This document shows, piece by piece, positions 5,102 to 14,353 of a DNA stretch of 64,000 bases. The stretch's first letter is position 1. Each line of letters starts with the position of its first letter. The DNA comes from a virus: the IMG/VR virus record IMGVR_UViG_3300003323_000915, positions 1 through 64,000 of that record. One strand, 5' to 3'. The notes under the pieces are model-generated. The model saw nothing but the letters and a program-made list of their open reading frames with translations. It had not been told where the DNA came from and did no database searches. The position numbers and the translations under genes are program-made.

Positions 5102-5554
5102 ATGGAAATCATTAAGAATGCAGACGCTGATATCCTACATGGAGGGCCAAATATTGATCAAAAAATAGACGTCCTTGAGGCTTTAATGCTTGCGAATTTC
5201 CCGGAAGTAAAATGTGATTTAGTCCATCGGTTCACCCCGGGATTGTACACGAGAGAGATATTTATGCCGGCAGGTTCTTTGATCACATCCAAAATACACA
5301 ACACGGAACATCCTTTTGTTGTATCAAAAGGGGTTGTTTCTGTGTTTACGGATGCTGATGGCGAAGTGTTAATTAAGGCTCCACATTGCGGGATAACAAA
5401 ACCGGGAACGCGCCGAGTTCTTTACGTTCACGAAGACTGTGTTTGGCTTACATTCCACCGGTGTGAAGATGGTGAGACGGTTGAGGATATTGAAAAGAGA
5501 ATTATTGAGCCTCATGACAACATTTTATTAAGCGGGAATCAACTAAAATCTTGA
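5102..5554 (+). CDS. Cupin-fold phage protein (usually adjacent to podovirus ejection genes)
   Basis: HRFTPGLYTREIFMPAGSLITSKIHNTEH..PGTRRVLYVHEDCVWLTFH pattern. Confidence 0.65.
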   Translation: MEIIKNADADILHGGPNIDQKIDVLEALMLANFPEVKCDLVHRFTPGLYTREIFMPAGSLITSKIHNTEHPFVVSKGVVSVFTDADGEVLIKAPHCGITKPGTRRVLYVHEDCVWLTFHRCEDGETVEDIEKRIIEPHDNILLSGNQLKS

Positions 5555-5558
5555 GACT

Positions 5559-6134
5559 ATGACATGGATAGCAGTAGGAGTAGGGGTGGCAGGATTGGCG
5601 TATAGCGTGTATTCTTCTGAGCACGCAAAAAGTCAAGCCAACAAAGCTCAGAAAGCAGAACAGGATGCCATCAATAATGGCCCAAAATATCAAGTTCAAG
5701 ATGAAGCTTATCAGAACAGGAACATCGCCGAAGGGCAGGCTTTTGGTAGAAATAGAGCTATTCAGATGCAGCAGCAAAATATCGGGCAGGAAGCGTCGAA
5801 CGCCGGCGCTGCGGCGCGTGATGTTTCGAGTAGCACGTCTGATTTACTGAGCACGATTGCCGCCATTAACGCCAACAAGAACACCAATCTGCGCGGACTT
5901 GCGCAAGACGAGGCTCAGGTGCAGCAACAAAACCTAGGGTCTCTTTACAATGCGAACAATAACCTGATCGACGAAAAGGATAAGGCGTGGAATTACAATT
6001 CAAACATGCCGTATCAAATGAAGATCGCAATGCTTCGCGATAAGATACAATACAACCAAAACGTACAACAGAAAGCAACTGACAATGCCTTTGCTTCAGC
6101 AACATCAATTGCCGGCGCATACGCGAACAAATAA
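5559..6134 (+). CDS. Small ejection / DNA pilot-like internal virion protein
   Basis: Hydrophobic G/A-rich N-terminus (MTWIAVGVGVAG), Q/N/A-rich helical body, position before the large internal proteins. Confidence 0.65.
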   Translation: MTWIAVGVGVAGLAYSVYSSEHAKSQANKAQKAEQDAINNGPKYQVQDEAYQNRNIAEGQAFGRNRAIQMQQQNIGQEASNAGAAARDVSSSTSDLLSTIAAINANKNTNLRGLAQDEAQVQQQNLGSLYNANNNLIDEKDKAWNYNSNMPYQMKIAMLRDKIQYNQNVQQKATDNAFASATSIAGAYANK

Positions 6135-6139
6135 AAACT

Positions 6140-8026
6140 ATGGCGTACAGGGAATTCCACTATGAAAAGCAGTATGCCGCCCCTGACGCAAGTCAGTTCA
6201 TGGACCACACCACTCAGGCTGTGGCTCATCTTTTTGATTCCGTGCGCCGAAGCCGCGAAGAACGGATAAAATCAACAAACCAATTCGAGTATGACCTGTC
6301 GAATGGCGCCTTTGATAACGACCAAAAGATTCTGACTGAGTACGCTAAAAATGTGGTTAATGCTGGTAAAAACGAGATTTACCATACCGGCAAAATAAGT
6401 AATGACACAGCCTCAAAAATGGCTCAAGGAAAGTCGTTGCAGCAGCTGAGTAAAATACAGATGGAGAAGACAAAAAATCTCCAATCTGAAATATTATCCC
6501 GTGACGCAAAAGATCCATACTACGACTCCAGTCTGGACATGAACCGGCTGAAGGTGGCTGTGAATGGAGAGGACAATAACGTGAACATGTTCGACAGGTC
6601 TGATAGACTGGTAATGTTCGAAAAGCAACTCGGCGGCATCGATTCATTCAAGTACAACAACTACAAGGCTGATTTTGTAAAGGCGTCAGGCCAAAGATAC
6701 AGGGAGCAAACGACTGGCAATCCTAACGCTACAAAGACAAGATATGATCAAGCTACGTTTTGGGATGACTCAACCGGCAAGCCTGGGGTAACAGATAAGC
6801 ACGCGATTGATTACATCAACAGCGATCCTCAGGGAAGAGTTGATCAGTACTTCAACAAAAAGGTAAATAACCAGCTTGATGACGAGATCAAAAAGATGAA
6901 ATCGAGTGGTGATTCCCGTGTGGCATGGATGAAAGGCAAAAGCGATGCCGAAATCAAGAATGAGTTAATAAATGATCCATCAAAAAATATCATCAACAGC
7001 CAGGATTACGGTGTTCGTAAAAGGAATTTAGCGAAGGCCGACCTGCAAGAAGCAGACCGGATAAACACGAAGGTATCAGTCGACTATAAGGCCGACAAAA
7101 ATCCCAATGCGTCTTTGTATAAGAACGACAATATTGCCCACGGCTACTCATTCAATAACTCGAAGTCAGTTGGCGCCGAGCCAGGGAAGGCTCCCGCGGC
7201 ATTTGATAATCCGGGCCCCGGCGGAGTGTTGTTCCAGAAGAACGGTAAACCTATCACCTTCAGCTCGACCACTCCGATCAGGACTGACATAAATACCGGC
7301 AGAACAAACCGCTCAAAGATTGGAAGCGTACCATTCAATCTTACTGGATACCAGTTACAGGCATTCAACACAAACGGTTACCCTGTCCTTCTCCACGGCA
7401 CCGATACGCAGTCGATGATTGACTATATCAACAACATGCCACTGGATTATTTCGATCCTAACGGTAAGTTTAAGTTACAGCCGGAGTTAAAGGTTGCTTT
7501 GCAAGGGTACACCGTAAATCAAGCTCACATTCTTAATGCGGCAAACAATAACGAGCAGGAAATTCAATCGCGAATCTCCGCCGCCGCAAATGCCAACGAC
7601 CAAGACAAGGTGGCGATCGAGGAGGAAAATCTTGAGAAGCTGAGAACGCTTAAAAAACTTATTGGTTCTGGTGTCGACGATCAGGAATTGGCGCTCGCCG
7701 CGAGCCGAGCCGGAATAAATGGTGTCCAGGTAAACGAACTTGTGCAGGCATCTGATCAGGACTTGTCAAACATCAATGCCATCACGCAAGGTTTGAACCT
7801 GAAAGATAAGTCAAAATGGAACGACGACATGCTCCGTATTGATCAGGCATATCGAAACAGATATCAGCAAGCGGTTGCTGCCGGATTTAAGCCAGTTGCA
7901 GAAAAGAAGCCAGCACGACAAAAAAACTCAGTTCCAACCGTCTCCAGCGCAGAAGATTACGATAAAATACCACCTGGCGGAAAATATATGGACCCGGATG
8001 GTAATGTCAGGACAAAGAAAAAATAA
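6140..8026 (+). CDS. Internal virion (ejection) protein
   Basis: 628 aa; C-terminal VPTVSSAEDYDKIPPGGKYMDPDG motif of the kind seen on podoviral ejection proteins; synteny. Confidence 0.6.
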   Translation: MAYREFHYEKQYAAPDASQFMDHTTQAVAHLFDSVRRSREERIKSTNQFEYDLSNGAFDNDQKILTEYAKNVVNAGKNEIYHTGKISNDTASKMAQGKSLQQLSKIQMEKTKNLQSEILSRDAKDPYYDSSLDMNRLKVAVNGEDNNVNMFDRSDRLVMFEKQLGGIDSFKYNNYKADFVKASGQRYREQTTGNPNATKTRYDQATFWDDSTGKPGVTDKHAIDYINSDPQGRVDQYFNKKVNNQLDDEIKKMKSSGDSRVAWMKGKSDAEIKNELINDPSKNIINSQDYGVRKRNLAKADLQEADRINTKVSVDYKADKNPNASLYKNDNIAHGYSFNNSKSVGAEPGKAPAAFDNPGPGGVLFQKNGKPITFSSTTPIRTDINTGRTNRSKIGSVPFNLTGYQLQAFNTNGYPVLLHGTDTQSMIDYINNMPLDYFDPNGKFKLQPELKVALQGYTVNQAHILNAANNNEQEIQSRISAAANANDQDKVAIEEENLEKLRTLKKLIGSGVDDQELALAASRAGINGVQVNELVQASDQDLSNINAITQGLNLKDKSKWNDDMLRIDQAYRNRYQQAVAAGFKPVAEKKPARQKNSVPTVSSAEDYDKIPPGGKYMDPDGNVRTKKK

Positions 8027-11000
8027 TGGGTAAACAGGTAAAATGGACGCCTCCGGAGGATGATTTAGTCGTTGACCAAAACGAACAGGAAAAGCCTGCC
8101 CAAAAATGGACGCCTCCTGAAGAGGATGCCATCGTTGAGCCAGTAAAAAAAAAAGACCAGCCGAATCAATCAGCTTCTTCGAGCGACTCGCAAGATCTTG
8201 GCGAGCCTTCTGGAAAGAGTACAACAAATACTCCGCAATTAAGCGAAAAACAAAAAGCAACATTTCGCGAAAATGTACTAAAGACTCCGGAACAAAAAAA
8301 GGCTGAAGATCTTAAGAATAAATTCGTTGATACCCAGCTGAAGGACGCCGTTGGAATAGACGAAACCCAATCCAAAGGGTTTACTGAATCATTCCTGCGC
8401 ACCGTTCAATCCGGGTTATCTGATCAAATCCCAAAAGAGTATTACGCGCAACGCCTGCGTATGAGCAAAGGTAACTTTGGTGATCTGTACGATCGTAGGA
8501 GTGACATCAATGCGTTTGGCGGCCCTGAATTCAGTAAGCAGTTACCAAAGGGCACATCCATCGACGCATTTTCCGAGTGGAATAATAAGCAGGATTTTAA
8601 GACAAAACAAAAATCGTACGATGAGCGTGCGAAGCTATTCTTAACCGAGAAACTTGGTGCGAAAGGATTTGAAGATCTGAAACAAAAGTTCATACAAGAA
8701 AACCAGGAAGAAAGGCTTGGATATGAGAAGAATATCCAGCAGCAAAATCAGGAGGTGGCAATTAAAACAGCTGGGGTTACACAGGATCTTAAAGGCATAA
8801 ATGGCGCCGGGGACTTCCTGAGCTTTGCAGGAAATATGATCGGACAGGCGTTATACCGAGCCCCGATCAATCTTGGTACCGGTCCGGCAGGATCAATCAT
8901 TTCAGAATCAGCATCTATCTACGATCAGCAACTTGATCTCATCGCGCAAAAGGAAGGCATCTCCCGGGAAGAGGTGATAAAGAGAGGCCTGGATAAACCA
9001 GCCGAAGGGCAGGCGCTGGCGGTGCTGGCCGGTACGCTGGATGCCGCCAGCGAATTCAATATCGTTGGTCTATTCAAGAAAGCCGCCGGGAAGCAATTGA
9101 CTGAGAATGTCGTCAAGCAATTTGTGAAAGGATTTGTGCGTGGCGCAGCACCAGAAGCGGTGACTGAGGCTGCCCAAGGAGAAATTGAGGAATTCGCCGC
9201 ATCGAAAGGAGCAGGCACAGAGTATCACCCAGACGCATGGCGAATCGCCACAAACGCAGTTGGAGCATTCATTGGCGGAGGAGTTCTTGGAGGTGGCGCG
9301 AATGTGAAGCTGAGTCCTATCTTGAAATCAATGCCGACACAGGACGTAGTCAACACCGCGACAACCGGACAGTCTTCTAACAACATAAAGTCAATTGAAC
9401 AAGCTGCCGATATTATCGACGCAAAAGTCCAAGACGCAGATGATACGACTGTCACCAAAGAGGTGAAGCAAGAAGAGCAATCAACACAACCAGAATTCAA
9501 GGAACCAGTAATAACACAAAACCAAGGAGACGATGCCTTACAAATCAGCGAGCCAACGGGCGTACTTCCAAGTTCACAGGAAGGAACTGGAAGCGAAGGG
9601 AGTGAACGTGGAGGAGTGGAACCAGTCGAGCAAGGGACTGGTACTGCCGAACAAGGTAGCCAGCAAAAAGAAGCTGGCAGAACGAATGAAGGAACGCAAG
9701 AAAAGAAAAGCATCTTAAATCAAGATACAGATTTAACAGGAGAACCGAAGGAAGACTTTATGCTTACTGAAGGTGAGCAAATCAAGAAAGTTCCAGATAA
9801 AAAATCTTTAGTTAATAAATTAGAAGAAATAGGGGCTCCTAAAAAATTGATTGAGAGTATCAGCAAATCAGCTACTCTTGAAAATTATAATTCACTGTTG
9901 ACACTTGGTAAGGTATATCATACATTGAATAATGCGGGTATAGAAAATAAAATTTACATCTCTAATCTCAGTAAATTATTCGGATATAAAGACACAATAG
10001 TACACGAGGCAGTTCATCTCGCTAGTATCGTTGCGATCGATGACTATCTGTATGAAAAGGAAAATGATGTTAAAGTGAGGTATCTAACAGATTCACAAAG
10101 GGAATCACTTGATTATATTGATAACATTTTTCAGAAGGCTAAGAAAAAATCAAAAGTAAAGACATATGGTTATACTGATCTGCATGAATTTTTTGCTGAG
10201 TTTATATCAAGCGAAAAATTCAGGAATAGATTATCCAGAGATTTAGAGAGTAAGTCAATTGTTCGGCGAGTAGCTGACTCTATAATTAATTTTATAGAGG
10301 AATTAACAGGACTGAGTCTATCGAAATCTAAAAATAATGATGTACTAGAGCAGCTTAATAAAATTAATAGTGAAATTGAAAACGTGTATGATGGCCGCAA
10401 TAAAGTAATACAAGAAGCTGTTAGATCCGGTCGATATGTAGCCTACATTCATTTAGGCAAAATGACAGCTAACGATGCAAAAACTATCATAGAATCAGCT
10501 GGAATAAAAGTTCCTGACTCCATACTTAAACTTGCAAAAGAGGAAAATAATAATTCACAACAAAACACTGTAGAAAATGAAAACGTACAGCAACAAGAAC
10601 AAACCGAAGCTGGGCTCGGGGGGCAGATTCAAAGCACTGAAGGAGAAACTAAGCAAAGAGAAAGGGGTGGAGAATCCGGGCGCACTCACAGCCAGCCTGG
10701 GAAGGAAGAAATACGGAGCGAAGAAAATGGAGGCAATGGCCGCCAAAGGAAAAAAAGCCTCCTGAACCGAGCGCACGAAGGAGTCAGTGATGAGCAGGTA
10801 AAATCGTCGATCGAAAAACATGGCCTTACCTATGAAGTTGAAAGCCATATATCCGCTGAGAAGTCAGCACAGAAATTTATTGATGACGTCGGCGTAGAAA
10901 ATGCAATAGAGGCTGTACGAAATAACGAAGTGGACGATGGCGCCGCCGCGTTCGTGTGGGCAAAAGCAATTGACGAAGTCGGACGTAAGCTCGCAGCAGC

Positions 11001-13812
11001 CACCGATAAAAACGAGATCAAGGAACTCACCGATGCGCAGACAAATCTCATCGACGAGTTTGATAAGAAAGCACGTTCCGGCGGCCGGTTTATTTCCGCT
11101 CTGCAAGACGTGTACAAGTCTTCTGATTTTGCATACAAAGCGGATTACCAGATCAAAAAATACAAAGAGGTCAATAACGGAAAAATACCGAAGGAGATTG
11201 AGGAAAAATTCCGTGACCTTGAAACAAAGCTCAATGCCGCCAATGAGAAGCTTCAAAAGTTAGAAGAGTCTCGAGGAAAAGAGTCTTCGAAAAAAACCGT
11301 ACAGGATATCCGCACCGATCTCCAAGCGCAAAAGGAACGCAGAGCAAAACTTGCCAAGGAACGAAAGGAGAAGATTGATAACTTCTTCGATTCACTGAAA
11401 GTAAAGAGTGATCCAAATAAACTAAACTCCATCACGCAAGTGATTGGTGAGTCTGTTTGGAATGGTTCTATCGAAGTTATGCGTGCCGCTGTGCTTGCCG
11501 GATCTGATGTCGCTATGGCTGTACAGGCCGGAATTGACTACGTGAAAGAACATTACCGAGGAAGCGATTTCGATGAGAATCAATTCAGGACAACTGTCGA
11601 GCCTGGCATCGAAAGGCTGGTGCCGACCGAGGAGGATGTAAAACTTCCGACGATGCGTAACGGTAAGCTGTCAATTCCACGGGCGTTAATACGTCAAGTA
11701 GTGGAGTCAGGCGCAAATACGATTGAGGAGGTAACAAATGATATTCACGATCTGATAAAAGACTCAATGCCGGAAGTGTCTGTTCGTGAAGTGCGTGATG
11801 CTATTACCAAGTACGGCGAGACGCGATCCTTGAGCAAGGAAGATCTTGATGTTAAAATACGCGAGCTAAAACGTGTCGGACGATTGGTGTCATCCCTGGA
11901 AGATGTTCAAAATAAATTACGACCACTGCGCAGTGGTCTTCAGCGCGACAAACTCACCGATCAGGAGCGCCGCATGCAACGGCAGGTCAAAGAGGCAATG
12001 AAGGATTTACCCATCGATGAAGATGAACTTAACCAGCAGTGGAAGACAGCGCTTGATGCCGTAAAATCACGCCTTAAAAATCAGATTTCAGATCTCGAAG
12101 ATCAGATAAAAACAGGTGAAAAAACACCGAAGAAAAAAGGCATAAAATATGACGAAGAAGCGACTGCTTTAAAGAATCAGCGCGATGCTTTGAAAAAAGT
12201 AATAGAGGATATTAACGGCAAAAACGGTATTTCTACCGAAGAAAAAGTACGTTTGGCGATAAAATCAGTAGGAGATAGTATTGCTGAATATGAGCGCAGA
12301 ATTCGTGAAAAAGACTTCGATAAAAAGAAAACTGAGCTTACACCTGAGACTCCGGAATTAAGGGAGATGCGCGCGAAGCGTGATCAGATAAAACAGGTAT
12401 ACAAGCAGCTTGAGAAGGATCTCGGTATTGCCGACAAAAAGAAGCTTGAAGCGTACAAGAAGAACATCAAAAAAACTATTGATCGGTATGAGTCGAGGAT
12501 AAAAAATAAGGATTTCGTCACAGAGAAAAAGAAGCCGCTTGACTTGGATAAAGAGGCGAAGGATTTGCGTATCGAACGCGATAAAATAAAATCTGAGTTT
12601 GAACTTGAGCAAGAAAAAAACAGATTGAATAATCGATCGCTGAGCGAAAAGGCATGGGATACTTTTGTTGATGTGGTAAATCTTCCAAAGTCAATGCTTG
12701 CATCGATCGATATGTCAGCGCCATTCCGCCAAGGTGCTGTACTTTCGTTTGCTAATCCGAAAGCCGGCGCTGCATCTTTCGCTGAAATGTTCCGTCAGGC
12801 GTTCTCCGAAAAGAAAGCAACCGAGTGGCTGGCCAAACTCAAAGAAAGCCCGGTATATGACACGATCAAGAAAAGTAAACTATATATCGCGGAACCGACA
12901 ACGAAACTGACTGCAAAGGAAGATCAGTTCATCTCCAATTTCGCGAGTAAAATTCCGCTGTTCAAAATCCCGTACAAAGCCAGTGAACGGGCGTACACCG
13001 GGTACCTGAATAAGCTCAGAGTTGATGTGTTCGTGAATGGTGCCGACAGACTGCAAGAAGCCGGGTTTACACCTGAATCAAATCCAGAGGCATACAAGGC
13101 TTGGGCTGATTTCATCAACAACGCTACGGGCCGCGGTAACCTTGGCGCACTGGAGGAGGCGGCAACAGTGCTGAATGGATTCTTCTTCTCGCCGAGGTTT
13201 GTAGCATCAAGGGTAAATCTCATGAATCCGATTAAATACGCAAAGATGCCACCAGAAGTTCGCAAGATGGCGATGAAAAATATGATCGCTTTTGTCGGGT
13301 TTAGCGCATTAGTGTTGACTATTGCAAGTGCGGCCGGCGCCGATGTTGAGCATGACCCACGCAGCTCTGATTTTGCCAAGATGAGAATCGGAGACACACG
13401 TTACGATATCCTTGCCGGATTCCAGCAGGTGATACGCCTTTTCGCTCAGCTTTCTTCCGGGCAACGGAAGAGCACAAGCACCGGTAAAATTACAGATCTT
13501 GATGGCAAGAAATTCCCGTTCGAAAATCGTGGTGATGTAGCATTGCGATTTGCTCGATCAAAGCTGGCCCCATCCGCAGGCAGCACGGTGAATTTACTTA
13601 CAGGAAAAGACATTGTAGGCCAGGAGGTTACCATTGAAGGCGAGGCGGTGAAGAATGTGATCCCTCTTTACATCCAAGATATTTATTCATTATACCAGAA
13701 AGAGACGCCAACTGGTCTTGTCTCATCGTTGATCCCGGCATTTTTCGGGGTTAGTGTACAGAACTATAGCAAGAAGAAGGAGAAGCCAAAAGAACCAATT
13801 TCTCCATGGTAA
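8026..13812 (+). CDS. Giant internal virion/ejection protein with zincin-like metallopeptidase segment and long coiled coils
   Basis: 1928 aa; HEAVH (10003-10017) plus downstream YGYTDLHEFFAE; G/A-rich hydrophobic segments; no RNAP DxDxD motif recognised. Confidence 0.7.
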   Translation: MGKQVKWTPPEDDLVVDQNEQEKPAQKWTPPEEDAIVEPVKKKDQPNQSASSSDSQDLGEPSGKSTTNTPQLSEKQKATFRENVLKTPEQKKAEDLKNKFVDTQLKDAVGIDETQSKGFTESFLRTVQSGLSDQIPKEYYAQRLRMSKGNFGDLYDRRSDINAFGGPEFSKQLPKGTSIDAFSEWNNKQDFKTKQKSYDERAKLFLTEKLGAKGFEDLKQKFIQENQEERLGYEKNIQQQNQEVAIKTAGVTQDLKGINGAGDFLSFAGNMIGQALYRAPINLGTGPAGSIISESASIYDQQLDLIAQKEGISREEVIKRGLDKPAEGQALAVLAGTLDAASEFNIVGLFKKAAGKQLTENVVKQFVKGFVRGAAPEAVTEAAQGEIEEFAASKGAGTEYHPDAWRIATNAVGAFIGGGVLGGGANVKLSPILKSMPTQDVVNTATTGQSSNNIKSIEQAADIIDAKVQDADDTTVTKEVKQEEQSTQPEFKEPVITQNQGDDALQISEPTGVLPSSQEGTGSEGSERGGVEPVEQGTGTAEQGSQQKEAGRTNEGTQEKKSILNQDTDLTGEPKEDFMLTEGEQIKKVPDKKSLVNKLEEIGAPKKLIESISKSATLENYNSLLTLGKVYHTLNNAGIENKIYISNLSKLFGYKDTIVHEAVHLASIVAIDDYLYEKENDVKVRYLTDSQRESLDYIDNIFQKAKKKSKVKTYGYTDLHEFFAEFISSEKFRNRLSRDLESKSIVRRVADSIINFIEELTGLSLSKSKNNDVLEQLNKINSEIENVYDGRNKVIQEAVRSGRYVAYIHLGKMTANDAKTIIESAGIKVPDSILKLAKEENNNSQQNTVENENVQQQEQTEAGLGGQIQSTEGETKQRERGGESGRTHSQPGKEEIRSEENGGNGRQRKKSLLNRAHEGVSDEQVKSSIEKHGLTYEVESHISAEKSAQKFIDDVGVENAIEAVRNNEVDDGAAAFVWAKAIDEVGRKLAAATDKNEIKELTDAQTNLIDEFDKKARSGGRFISALQDVYKSSDFAYKADYQIKKYKEVNNGKIPKEIEEKFRDLETKLNAANEKLQKLEESRGKESSKKTVQDIRTDLQAQKERRAKLAKERKEKIDNFFDSLKVKSDPNKLNSITQVIGESVWNGSIEVMRAAVLAGSDVAMAVQAGIDYVKEHYRGSDFDENQFRTTVEPGIERLVPTEEDVKLPTMRNGKLSIPRALIRQVVESGANTIEEVTNDIHDLIKDSMPEVSVREVRDAITKYGETRSLSKEDLDVKIRELKRVGRLVSSLEDVQNKLRPLRSGLQRDKLTDQERRMQRQVKEAMKDLPIDEDELNQQWKTALDAVKSRLKNQISDLEDQIKTGEKTPKKKGIKYDEEATALKNQRDALKKVIEDINGKNGISTEEKVRLAIKSVGDSIAEYERRIREKDFDKKKTELTPETPELREMRAKRDQIKQVYKQLEKDLGIADKKKLEAYKKNIKKTIDRYESRIKNKDFVTEKKKPLDLDKEAKDLRIERDKIKSEFELEQEKNRLNNRSLSEKAWDTFVDVVNLPKSMLASIDMSAPFRQGAVLSFANPKAGAASFAEMFRQAFSEKKATEWLAKLKESPVYDTIKKSKLYIAEPTTKLTAKEDQFISNFASKIPLFKIPYKASERAYTGYLNKLRVDVFVNGADRLQEAGFTPESNPEAYKAWADFINNATGRGNLGALEEAATVLNGFFFSPRFVASRVNLMNPIKYAKMPPEVRKMAMKNMIAFVGFSALVLTIASAAGADVEHDPRSSDFAKMRIGDTRYDILAGFQQVIRLFAQLSSGQRKSTSTGKITDLDGKKFPFENRGDVALRFARSKLAPSAGSTVNLLTGKDIVGQEVTIEGEAVKNVIPLYIQDIYSLYQKETPTGLVSSLIPAFFGVSVQNYSKKKEKPKEPISPW
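9533..9718 (+). CDS. Small basic protein overprinted in the +1 frame of the giant gene
   Basis: MPYKSASQRAYFQVHRKELEAKGVNVEEWNQSSKG..; resembles small phage proteins starting MP(F/Y)KS.xQR; ATG start, A at -3. Confidence 0.6.
   Translation: MPYKSASQRAYFQVHRKELEAKGVNVEEWNQSSKGLVLPNKVASKKKLAERMKERKKRKAS
10577..10765 (+). CDS. Second small basic protein overprinted in the +1 frame of the giant gene
   Basis: MKTYSNKNKPKLGSGGRFKALKEKL..NPGALTASLGRKKYGAKKM; shares MKTYSNK with the 54816..55304 product; A-rich start context. Confidence 0.65.
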   Translation: MKTYSNKNKPKLGSGGRFKALKEKLSKEKGVENPGALTASLGRKKYGAKKMEAMAAKGKKAS

Positions 13813-13837: not shown

Positions 13838-14353
13838 ATGTCGCACTCTATGTTAAACGAAACACTATTCCATCCTGAAACCGGCACCTTCCGAGCAGTA
13901 ACAGGGGGCGCATATAATCTTCCAAATTCCTACGGCGATATTGTTTCCGGATCATCCTTCCCGGTGAAGGGGACAATCCCAATCGCAAATACCCATGTTG
14001 GTACATTCAAATCAACAGGCAAGGCTGTACGAGGAACAGGCACATTTTTCACAAAGCTGATTCAGGGCAGTTTTCTATATGACGGGAATGTTTTACGTCA
14101 AATTGACTATGTGGTTGCTGATGATTTTCTGTTTCTGAAAGAAGGATTCCCGACAGATGTTACGGCTGCAACTGCGGTGAATGTGTGTGTAAATCAGTTT
14201 TACAAAATGATTCTCGCTAAGAGCACGCATGCAACCGCATCTGCGACTTTGCAGGAAGCTCCATTTCGCCCAGGTGATCACACGGTAAATGGCGGTGCAC
14301 CGTATAGCTACGATGCAACAACAGGAGAAATTTCATTTCAGGTATCGCAATAA
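13838..14353 (+). CDS. Putative virion structural protein (beta-rich)
   Basis: T/G/V-rich, with a GKAVRGTGTFFT motif like tail-appendage beta-sandwiches; follows the ejection genes. Confidence 0.45.
   Translation: MSHSMLNETLFHPETGTFRAVTGGAYNLPNSYGDIVSGSSFPVKGTIPIANTHVGTFKSTGKAVRGTGTFFTKLIQGSFLYDGNVLRQIDYVVADDFLFLKEGFPTDVTAATAVNVCVNQFYKMILAKSTHATASATLQEAPFRPGDHTVNGGAPYSYDATTGEISFQVSQ

Follow-up and report, generated by a model that had tools for sequence, protein, structure and literature searches.

Two small phage genes nested in the +1 frame of a giant virion-module gene

Can one stretch of viral DNA encode a giant protein in one frame and, in another frame of the same strand, two small proteins with a history of their own? 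The question is raised by IMG/VR virus record IMGVR_UViG_3300003323_000915, a 77,248-bp sequence rated complete by CheckV, of which we analyzed positions 1 to 64,000 (64 kb, hereafter the window). An open reading frame (ORF) of 1928 amino acids (aa) in this window, referred to here as the giant, contains in its +1 frame two ATG-initiated ORFs, which we call pep1 and pep2 (Table 1). A preliminary description made from the letters alone had placed both of them beneath low-complexity linkers of the giant, and the ORF listing agrees in position, start codon, length and frame: pep1 spans residues 503-565 of the giant and pep2 spans residues 851-914, with E, Q and G as the commonest linker residues at both places. 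The reading we prefer, with a probability of about 0.78, is dual coding, in which the giant is read in frame 0 and two older genes are still translated on their own in the +1 frame.

Open alternative frames mean little by themselves. In 83 giants from the loci fetched for this work (~150,000 codons) we counted 223 +1-frame ATG-initiated ORFs of at least 40 aa, and homology is therefore the decisive evidence. For pep1, a word-indexed search returned 12 small homologues with E values from 3e-13 to 3e-8, and a profile of free-standing family members (A2) matched it with E = 5e-30 over positions 1-53/54. The profile search identified 820 representative clusters at E <= 1e-3 and 337 at E <= 1e-10, and the family is present at a minimum of 311 viral loci in IMG/VR (at least that number). 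Its consensus is MPYKSxAQxAYFN..ELEKQGVNVxEWNxxSKG. None of the 18 columns invariant in A2, or of the 13 invariant in the 55-sequence A3, is altered in the window copy; it starts with Met-Pro-(Tyr/Phe)-Lys-Ser at residue 1, and Q8, F12, L19, G23, V24, V26, E28, W29 and S33 are present. For pep2 we found 104 small free-standing homologues of 34-109 aa (best E = 2e-16), the top matches showing 81-84% identity, and at least 455 loci in IMG/VR. The consensus of this second family is KPKLGSGGRFKAL...GRKKYGAKKM (KLGSGGRF...GRKKYG), and the invariant residues K11, G13, G15, R17, G42 and G47 are all kept in the window copy. Both families are unnamed. The preliminary description had pointed to the motifs MP[FY]KS..Q and KLGSG.RF ... 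GRKKYG of free-standing small phage proteins; the family alignments showed these to be the true consensus, and the kinship it proposed is borne out by the homologues of both peptides. Among 250 alternative-frame ORFs in the 83 giants, only the pep1 and pep2 families recur across divergent loci.

Both peptides are basic, each with an isoelectric point (pI) of 10.4, and the linker segments over pep1 and pep2 have pI values of 4.4 and 5.8, respectively (61 codons overlap pep1). The AlphaFold2 (AF2) model of pep1 is helical, with a mean predicted local distance difference test (pLDDT) score of 81, and that of pep2 consists of three helices (mean pLDDT 79.6). We describe pep1 as a folded domain of ~45 aa with a basic tail. 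This domain stands at residues 1-45 in nearly all profile matches, in proteins ranging from 55 to 1022 residues, and the C-terminal parts of the long forms match DUF6321, NUDIX or, weakly, a Zn-peptidase (in locus L093 the weak match is to Zn_peptidase_2), or contain nothing recognisable. The pep2 domain is likewise part of at least 881 longer proteins, some of which carry it in tandem. Three single proteins of 170-177 aa (P0117, P0118 and P0119) carry tandem pep2 domains, and in P0117 the two copies lie on either side of a stretch matching Pfam Fusello_VP2_Capsid. We rejected this VP2-like match as evidence on pep2, since it falls between the pep2 copies and outside the domain. A further ORF, at positions 1093-2934 of locus L073, is an unusual fusion in which pep2 lies between a PG_binding_1 domain and a prohead serine protease (S78), and so beside a capsid-interior enzyme.

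At most loci pep1 or pep2 is a free-standing gene, over which neither of the remaining forward frames stays open for more than a few dozen codons. Free pep1 lies 5-23 nucleotides (nt) past the stop of a giant gene and is followed by an ORF of ~176 aa, which by size and position is presumably the equivalent of the gene that follows the giant in the window. Free pep2 adjoins portal or head-closure genes or immediately precedes a giant gene. Complete nesting of pep1 in giant ORFs of 427-4407 aa was observed at about 27 of the 80 best loci, and a nested small gene is always found in the +1 frame of its giant. Counting only pep1 copies nested 30 codons or more inside giants, we obtained 21 non-identical copies, including that of the window; five further nested copies were present among loci skipped by the search pattern. 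The pep1 family also shows a third state, in-frame fusion as the N-terminus of a larger protein. Nesting of pep2 was observed in the window and in L081, L163 and L082. L081 and L163 come from two other samples and have giants 55-68% identical in amino acid sequence to that of the window, and in each of them pep1 as well as pep2 is nested in the +1 frame. That two independent relatives share both nestings excludes an assembly error such as a frameshift. The two small genes are adjacent in L081 and L163 (in L081, 3 nt separate the pep1 stop from the pep2 ATG), and the module that lies between them in the window, residues 566-850 of the giant, is absent. The order is pep2 and then pep1 in L082, where both are nested in an ORF of 3848 aa. 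In three more distant relatives (L164-L166, ~35% identity) the C-terminal 1000 residues of the giant form a separate gene (~990 aa) that has its own short N-terminal domain and a short linker but contains no nested gene. In L085, L102 and L142 a longer linker, which carries pep1, follows a short N-terminal domain similar in form to that of L165.

The codon usage of the nested copies reflects the presence of the second frame. The giant frame acquires a stop wherever a T-ending pep codon is followed by a codon that begins with AA, AG or GA. At such at-risk sites pep1 codons end in T in 244 of 951 cases in free copies (25.7%) and in 0 of 526 in nested copies. When synonymous codons were resampled, the giant frame stayed open in 0-0.8% of trials per locus; for the window the values were 0.35% over pep1 and 0/2000 over pep2. 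T-ending codons are rarer in nested pep1 even where no stop would form (2.4% vs 15.3%). The share of codons with T in third position is 1.6% for nested pep1, 20% for free pep1 and 35% for the remaining long ORFs at these loci; T in first position accounts for 1.6% of linker-frame codons vs 18.5% in ordinary ORFs. Since T is avoided beyond the sites where stops would form, the linker frame is not just maintained as an open frame but is also cleared of codons for hydrophobic and aromatic residues.

Conservation of the pep frame was equally evident. Pairwise nucleotide variability at pep codon positions 1, 2 and 3 was 0.27, 0.15 and 0.36 among 18 non-redundant nested copies, compared with 0.25, 0.17 and 0.57 among 37 free copies. 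Amino acid identity of pep1 was 72.5% among nested and 74.3% among free copies, and the giant frame over the same bases reached 49.8%. The preliminary description had proposed asking which frame is conserved in homologous giants, and the comparison of the window with L081 and L163 gives a clear answer: identity is 68% and 74% for pep1 and 69% and 76% for pep2, whereas the giant frame over the pep bases is 39-52% identical, below the 55-68% of its flanks. The ATG and an intact ORF were retained in every nested copy, including those of 13 loci skipped by the search pattern. Both the giant and the pep frames are under selection. Together, family homology and frame-specific conservation uphold the earlier view of pep1 and pep2 as genuine nested genes that gene callers skip. 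The accompanying idea that the linkers act as hosts is not supported as worded: of the two frames, that of the small genes has the greater age and the stronger conservation, and the linker frame looks secondary, kept open and hydrophilic.

Are the nested ATGs plausible sites of initiation? Shine-Dalgarno boxes are missing, and leaders are A-rich, in the genes of the window and in most pep1 leaders. Because the window's own genes generally lack a Shine-Dalgarno box, its absence is no argument against initiation at the nested starts. Compared with the other +1-frame ATGs of the same giants, nested pep1 ATGs are more A-rich upstream (median percentile 6%, Wilcoxon p = 3e-5, n = 21) and have weaker predicted mRNA structure (median percentile 5%, Wilcoxon p = 5e-7, n = 21). 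At three loci (L082, L089 and L099) the sequence AGGAGG lies 6-7 nt before the nested ATG. We also noted that many genes of the window have a (C/A)TTAAA or ATAAA-like element 10-20 nt before the start together with an A-rich leader; these features would fit a host of the Bacteroidota type, or stop-start coupling of closely packed genes.

Under the dual-coding reading, ribosomes would read the 1928-aa protein straight through in frame 0, and pep1 and pep2 would be translated from their own ATGs, probably from internal starts on a shared late mRNA. The arrangement may have originated when adjacent virion genes became joined in one frame that runs across the small genes, which would make the linker the newer frame; alternatively, a dual-coding cassette may have moved between module junctions. 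Nesting, as opposed to in-frame fusion, might be explained if pep1 requires a free N-terminus, an idea we entertain because the pep1 module is nearly always found at residue 1 of its protein. A pep1 tree based on 45 columns needs 11 changes between the nested and free states, and its well-supported branches force only one of them.

Several points weigh against this reading or narrow it. The 45-column tree cannot separate one nesting origin from several, nor engulfment from cassette movement. The loci are related, so the Wilcoxon and identity comparisons given above overstate independence, and the weak-structure result owes something to the 5' end of the pep1 coding region, itself conserved and A-rich, which is part of the folded stretch. 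The AAGGAG of the window lies only 3 nt before the pep1 ATG, which is poor spacing, and nested pep2 is limited to four loci, three of them closely related. With regard to expression, the public runs holding this stretch comprise a root-metagenome DNA run only, with no RNA run listed. With regard to function, no Pfam or PHROG model matched pep1 or pep2 or exists for either family, Foldseek searches of the PDB with the models of both peptides gave no fold match, and VIA-align in wide mode reached a best Z of 3.2 for pep1, which is uninformative. The small basic Pfam families DUF3008, DUF6496 and Fusello_VP2_Capsid were considered as similar and rejected, as no Pfam model matched the peptides, or 55 members of each family, at E <= 1. 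A tblastn search of 50,697 GenBank phage records with pep1 and pep2 returned nothing useful, a protein atlas search with pep2 retrieved only viral 'hypothetical' clusters, and a literature search for the pep1 and pep2 motifs found nothing relevant.

Of the other explanations, the one that survives best, itself improbable, is that the engulfed small genes are untranslated relics, which persist because they are recent or because the linker needs that DNA. The lack of a listed RNA run and of a Shine-Dalgarno box at most nested starts would fit such relics. Yet the nested copies, although ~27% divergent in amino acid sequence, have without exception kept the ATG, an uninterrupted ORF and the invariant residues; they are as similar to one another as free copies are, and their variability follows the order position 2 < position 1 < position 3. 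Moreover, the start contexts resemble real initiation regions, with a perfect AGGAGG at three loci, in phages that are generally independent of Shine-Dalgarno boxes.

We consider it quite improbable that the giant is not one functional protein, its N-terminal part, pep1, the middle module, pep2 and the C-terminal part being separate genes and the open frame an incidental read-through. The parts do occur apart in some relatives, and an in-frame ATG at 9760, 42 nt past the pep1 stop and preceded by AAGGAAG, is a candidate internal start for the middle module, by which the giant might also yield shorter products. However, with no stop codon in the way, ribosomes must read through. The frame is open in the ~27 of 80 loci mentioned above, compared with ~0.2% predicted by shuffles, and the scarcity of T-first codons in the linker distinguishes it from ordinary ORFs. 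In addition, no ATG, GTG or TTG was seen in the giant frame in the stretch read after the pep2 stop, and for this reason we regard the giant as a real fusion.

Recoding, in which +1 frameshifting or transcriptional slippage into the pep frames would produce truncated giants with a basic tail, strikes us as very improbable. Programmed frameshifts are frequent in phage structural genes, and the regions upstream of the nested ORFs are A-rich; against this, the invariant MPYKS begins exactly at the nested ATG in every copy, and the family domain is found at residue 1. Inspection by eye, with no dedicated search, revealed neither a long A-run nor a known +1 shift site ahead of the window's nested ATGs, and a -1 shift on an A-run would reach the wrong frame.

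Finally, the caveat attached to the preliminary description, that an acidic A-rich frame yields K/R-rich open +1 frames in which ORFs appear by chance, can be set aside: such ORFs are indeed common, and the window's giant has several more, but the matches to free-standing families (E down to 1e-13 to 1e-16, and lower still with the profile), the better conservation of the pep frame than of the giant frame on the same bases and the recurrence of only these two families rule it out as the explanation of pep1 and pep2.

Table 1. Coordinates of the giant gene, its nested genes and associated features in the window
Feature	Description	Coordinates	Strand	Basis
Giant ORF	1928 aa; frame hosting pep1 and pep2	8026-13812	+	ORF listing
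Linker 1 of giant	aa 480-566, E/Q/G-rich	9463-9723	+	Sequence composition
pep1 leader	A-rich, weakly structured; AAGGAG at 9524-9529	9513-9532	+	
pep1	61 aa, ATG start, +1 frame of giant	9533-9718	+	ORF listing, homology, frame-specific conservation
KKSILN	Giant-frame motif overlapping the pep1 end	9703-9720	+	
Middle module of giant	aa 566-850, between pep1 and pep2	9721-10575	+	
Linker 2 of giant	aa 840-915, E/Q/G/N-rich, overprints pep2	10543-10770	+	Sequence composition
pep2 leader	A-rich, no Shine-Dalgarno box	10557-10576	+	
pep2	62 aa, ATG start, +1 frame of giant	10577-10765	+	ORF listing, homology, frame-specific conservation
KKSLLN	Giant-frame motif, twin of KKSILN, at the pep2 end	10750-10767	+	
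171-aa gene	Next after the giant gene	13838-14353	+	ORF listing

The giant itself is placed in a structural block, after virion-structural and tail-fibre genes, and the terminase and portal genes are also in the window. Pfam and PHROG searches of the giant matched no family, and tblastn against the same GenBank phage records gave a single weak C-terminal match only. The name 'ejection protein' used in the preliminary description is putative and follows from position only. The sole long hydrophobic run of the giant, residues 1753-1772 (13282-13341), lies in the C-terminal region, within the part that is most widely conserved among relatives (residues ~1450-1913), and is consistent with a membrane-inserting protein of the ejection type. 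The motif KKS(I/L)LN is conserved in the giant frame and begins the next module of the giant after each nested gene. It also accounts for the similar endings of pep1 and pep2 in the overlapping frame, which had been reported as K-x-K-A-S. The ending is indeed shared, and its actual form is (K/R)-K-A-S-stop (KRKAS in pep1 and GKKAS in pep2, each followed by the stop).

The middle module contains the motif pair HEAVH (10003-10017) and HEFFAEF (10183-10203), that is HExxH...EFFAEF, which suggests a putative metallopeptidase domain of the zincin type. No relatives of the module as such were found in viral contigs. In L165 a neighbour gene of 1753 aa has an HEGIH stretch similar to that of the middle module, and the same locus contains, between two large virion-module genes, an ORF of 163 aa (5294-5785) that by eye is ferritin/Dps-like.

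What might the two peptides do? The preliminary description had raised a DNA-condensing or co-packaged role, and the pI of 10.4, the position in the virion module and the fusion partners do no more than suggest it. With considerable doubt, we favour a virion-associated role, such as that of a packaging or anchoring tag or of a DNA-contacting core protein, in view of the basic charge and helical models of the peptides and their link to the virion module. Internal proteins of phage T4 are packaged with the help of N-terminal capsid-targeting tags, and there is a functional analogy in the short conserved pep1 N-module that precedes NUDIX, DUF6321 or peptidase-like cargo in virion-module genes. 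The two differ in that no relation of sequence or fold connects them, and pep1 has a folded domain and a tail where the T4 signal has 10 residues.

The closest known architecture is that of lambda Rz1, which is embedded in the +1 frame of Rz and translated independently of it; in other phages spanin pairs are also overlapped or separated, and one proposed origin has the larger gene extended across the smaller (PMC6139136). As in Rz/Rz1, a small phage gene lies wholly inside a larger one on the same strand, in the +1 frame, with its own start and stop, and nested and separate arrangements of the same pair exist in different phages. The differences are that the host of pep1 and pep2 is a giant virion-module gene and not an inner-membrane spanin, that two unrelated genes lie inside one host gene, and that the part of the host protein affected by the overlap is a disordered linker joining modules. 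Furthermore, here a single family occurs free, nested and fused in frame, whereas the spanin survey found no family that mixes the embedded with other architectures (PMC6139136). We rejected the possibility that pep1 and pep2 are themselves spanins, as an o-spanin carries a lipoprotein signal with a lipobox Cys and an i-spanin an N-terminal transmembrane domain; both peptides lack Cys and hence a lipobox, and the only long hydrophobic run of the giant is the C-terminal one described above.

In classical overprinting, of which genes B, K and E of phiX174 are examples, the small nested ORF is the novel one (PMC8227390). The present case resembles it in that two proteins come from one stretch and one frame is compositionally odd and disordered. 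Here, however, the nested ORFs are old and widespread, and it is the large gene that supplies the novel, disordered frame. With the older genes on the inside, the polarity of overprinting is reversed. A de novo origin of the nested ORFs by overprinting was likewise rejected, the nested families being far wider in distribution than the host gene and better conserved than the host frame.

These observations lead us to a tentative model, to which we would give somewhat less than an even chance. Giant virion genes would be built by fusion across pre-existing small genes; the engulfed genes would live on in the +1 frame because their products require a free N-terminus, and the frame read through them would become the linker. 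Cassettes of pep1 and pep2 would then mark, and perhaps mediate, the junctions between modules, one sign of which is the zincin-like module inserted between the two in the window. Such a process would amount to a general route to overlapping genes, run in reverse.

As an instance of same-strand dual coding in tailed phages, the locus is clean, recurs elsewhere and has statistical support. The two large families concerned are nameless, lack a Pfam model and have no record from a cultured phage, and their nested members cannot be reported by standard gene callers. Its unusual polarity provides a testable model for the construction of giant multi-module virion proteins, and the occurrence of free, nested and fused states in one family constitutes a natural experiment on the cost of overlap. 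The pep1 N-module, standing as it does before varied enzymes, may be a targeting or anchoring tag for packaged or injected cargo. If the tentative model of fusion across small genes is true, hundreds of phages would encode a hidden class of small proteins that are part of the virion or injected with it.

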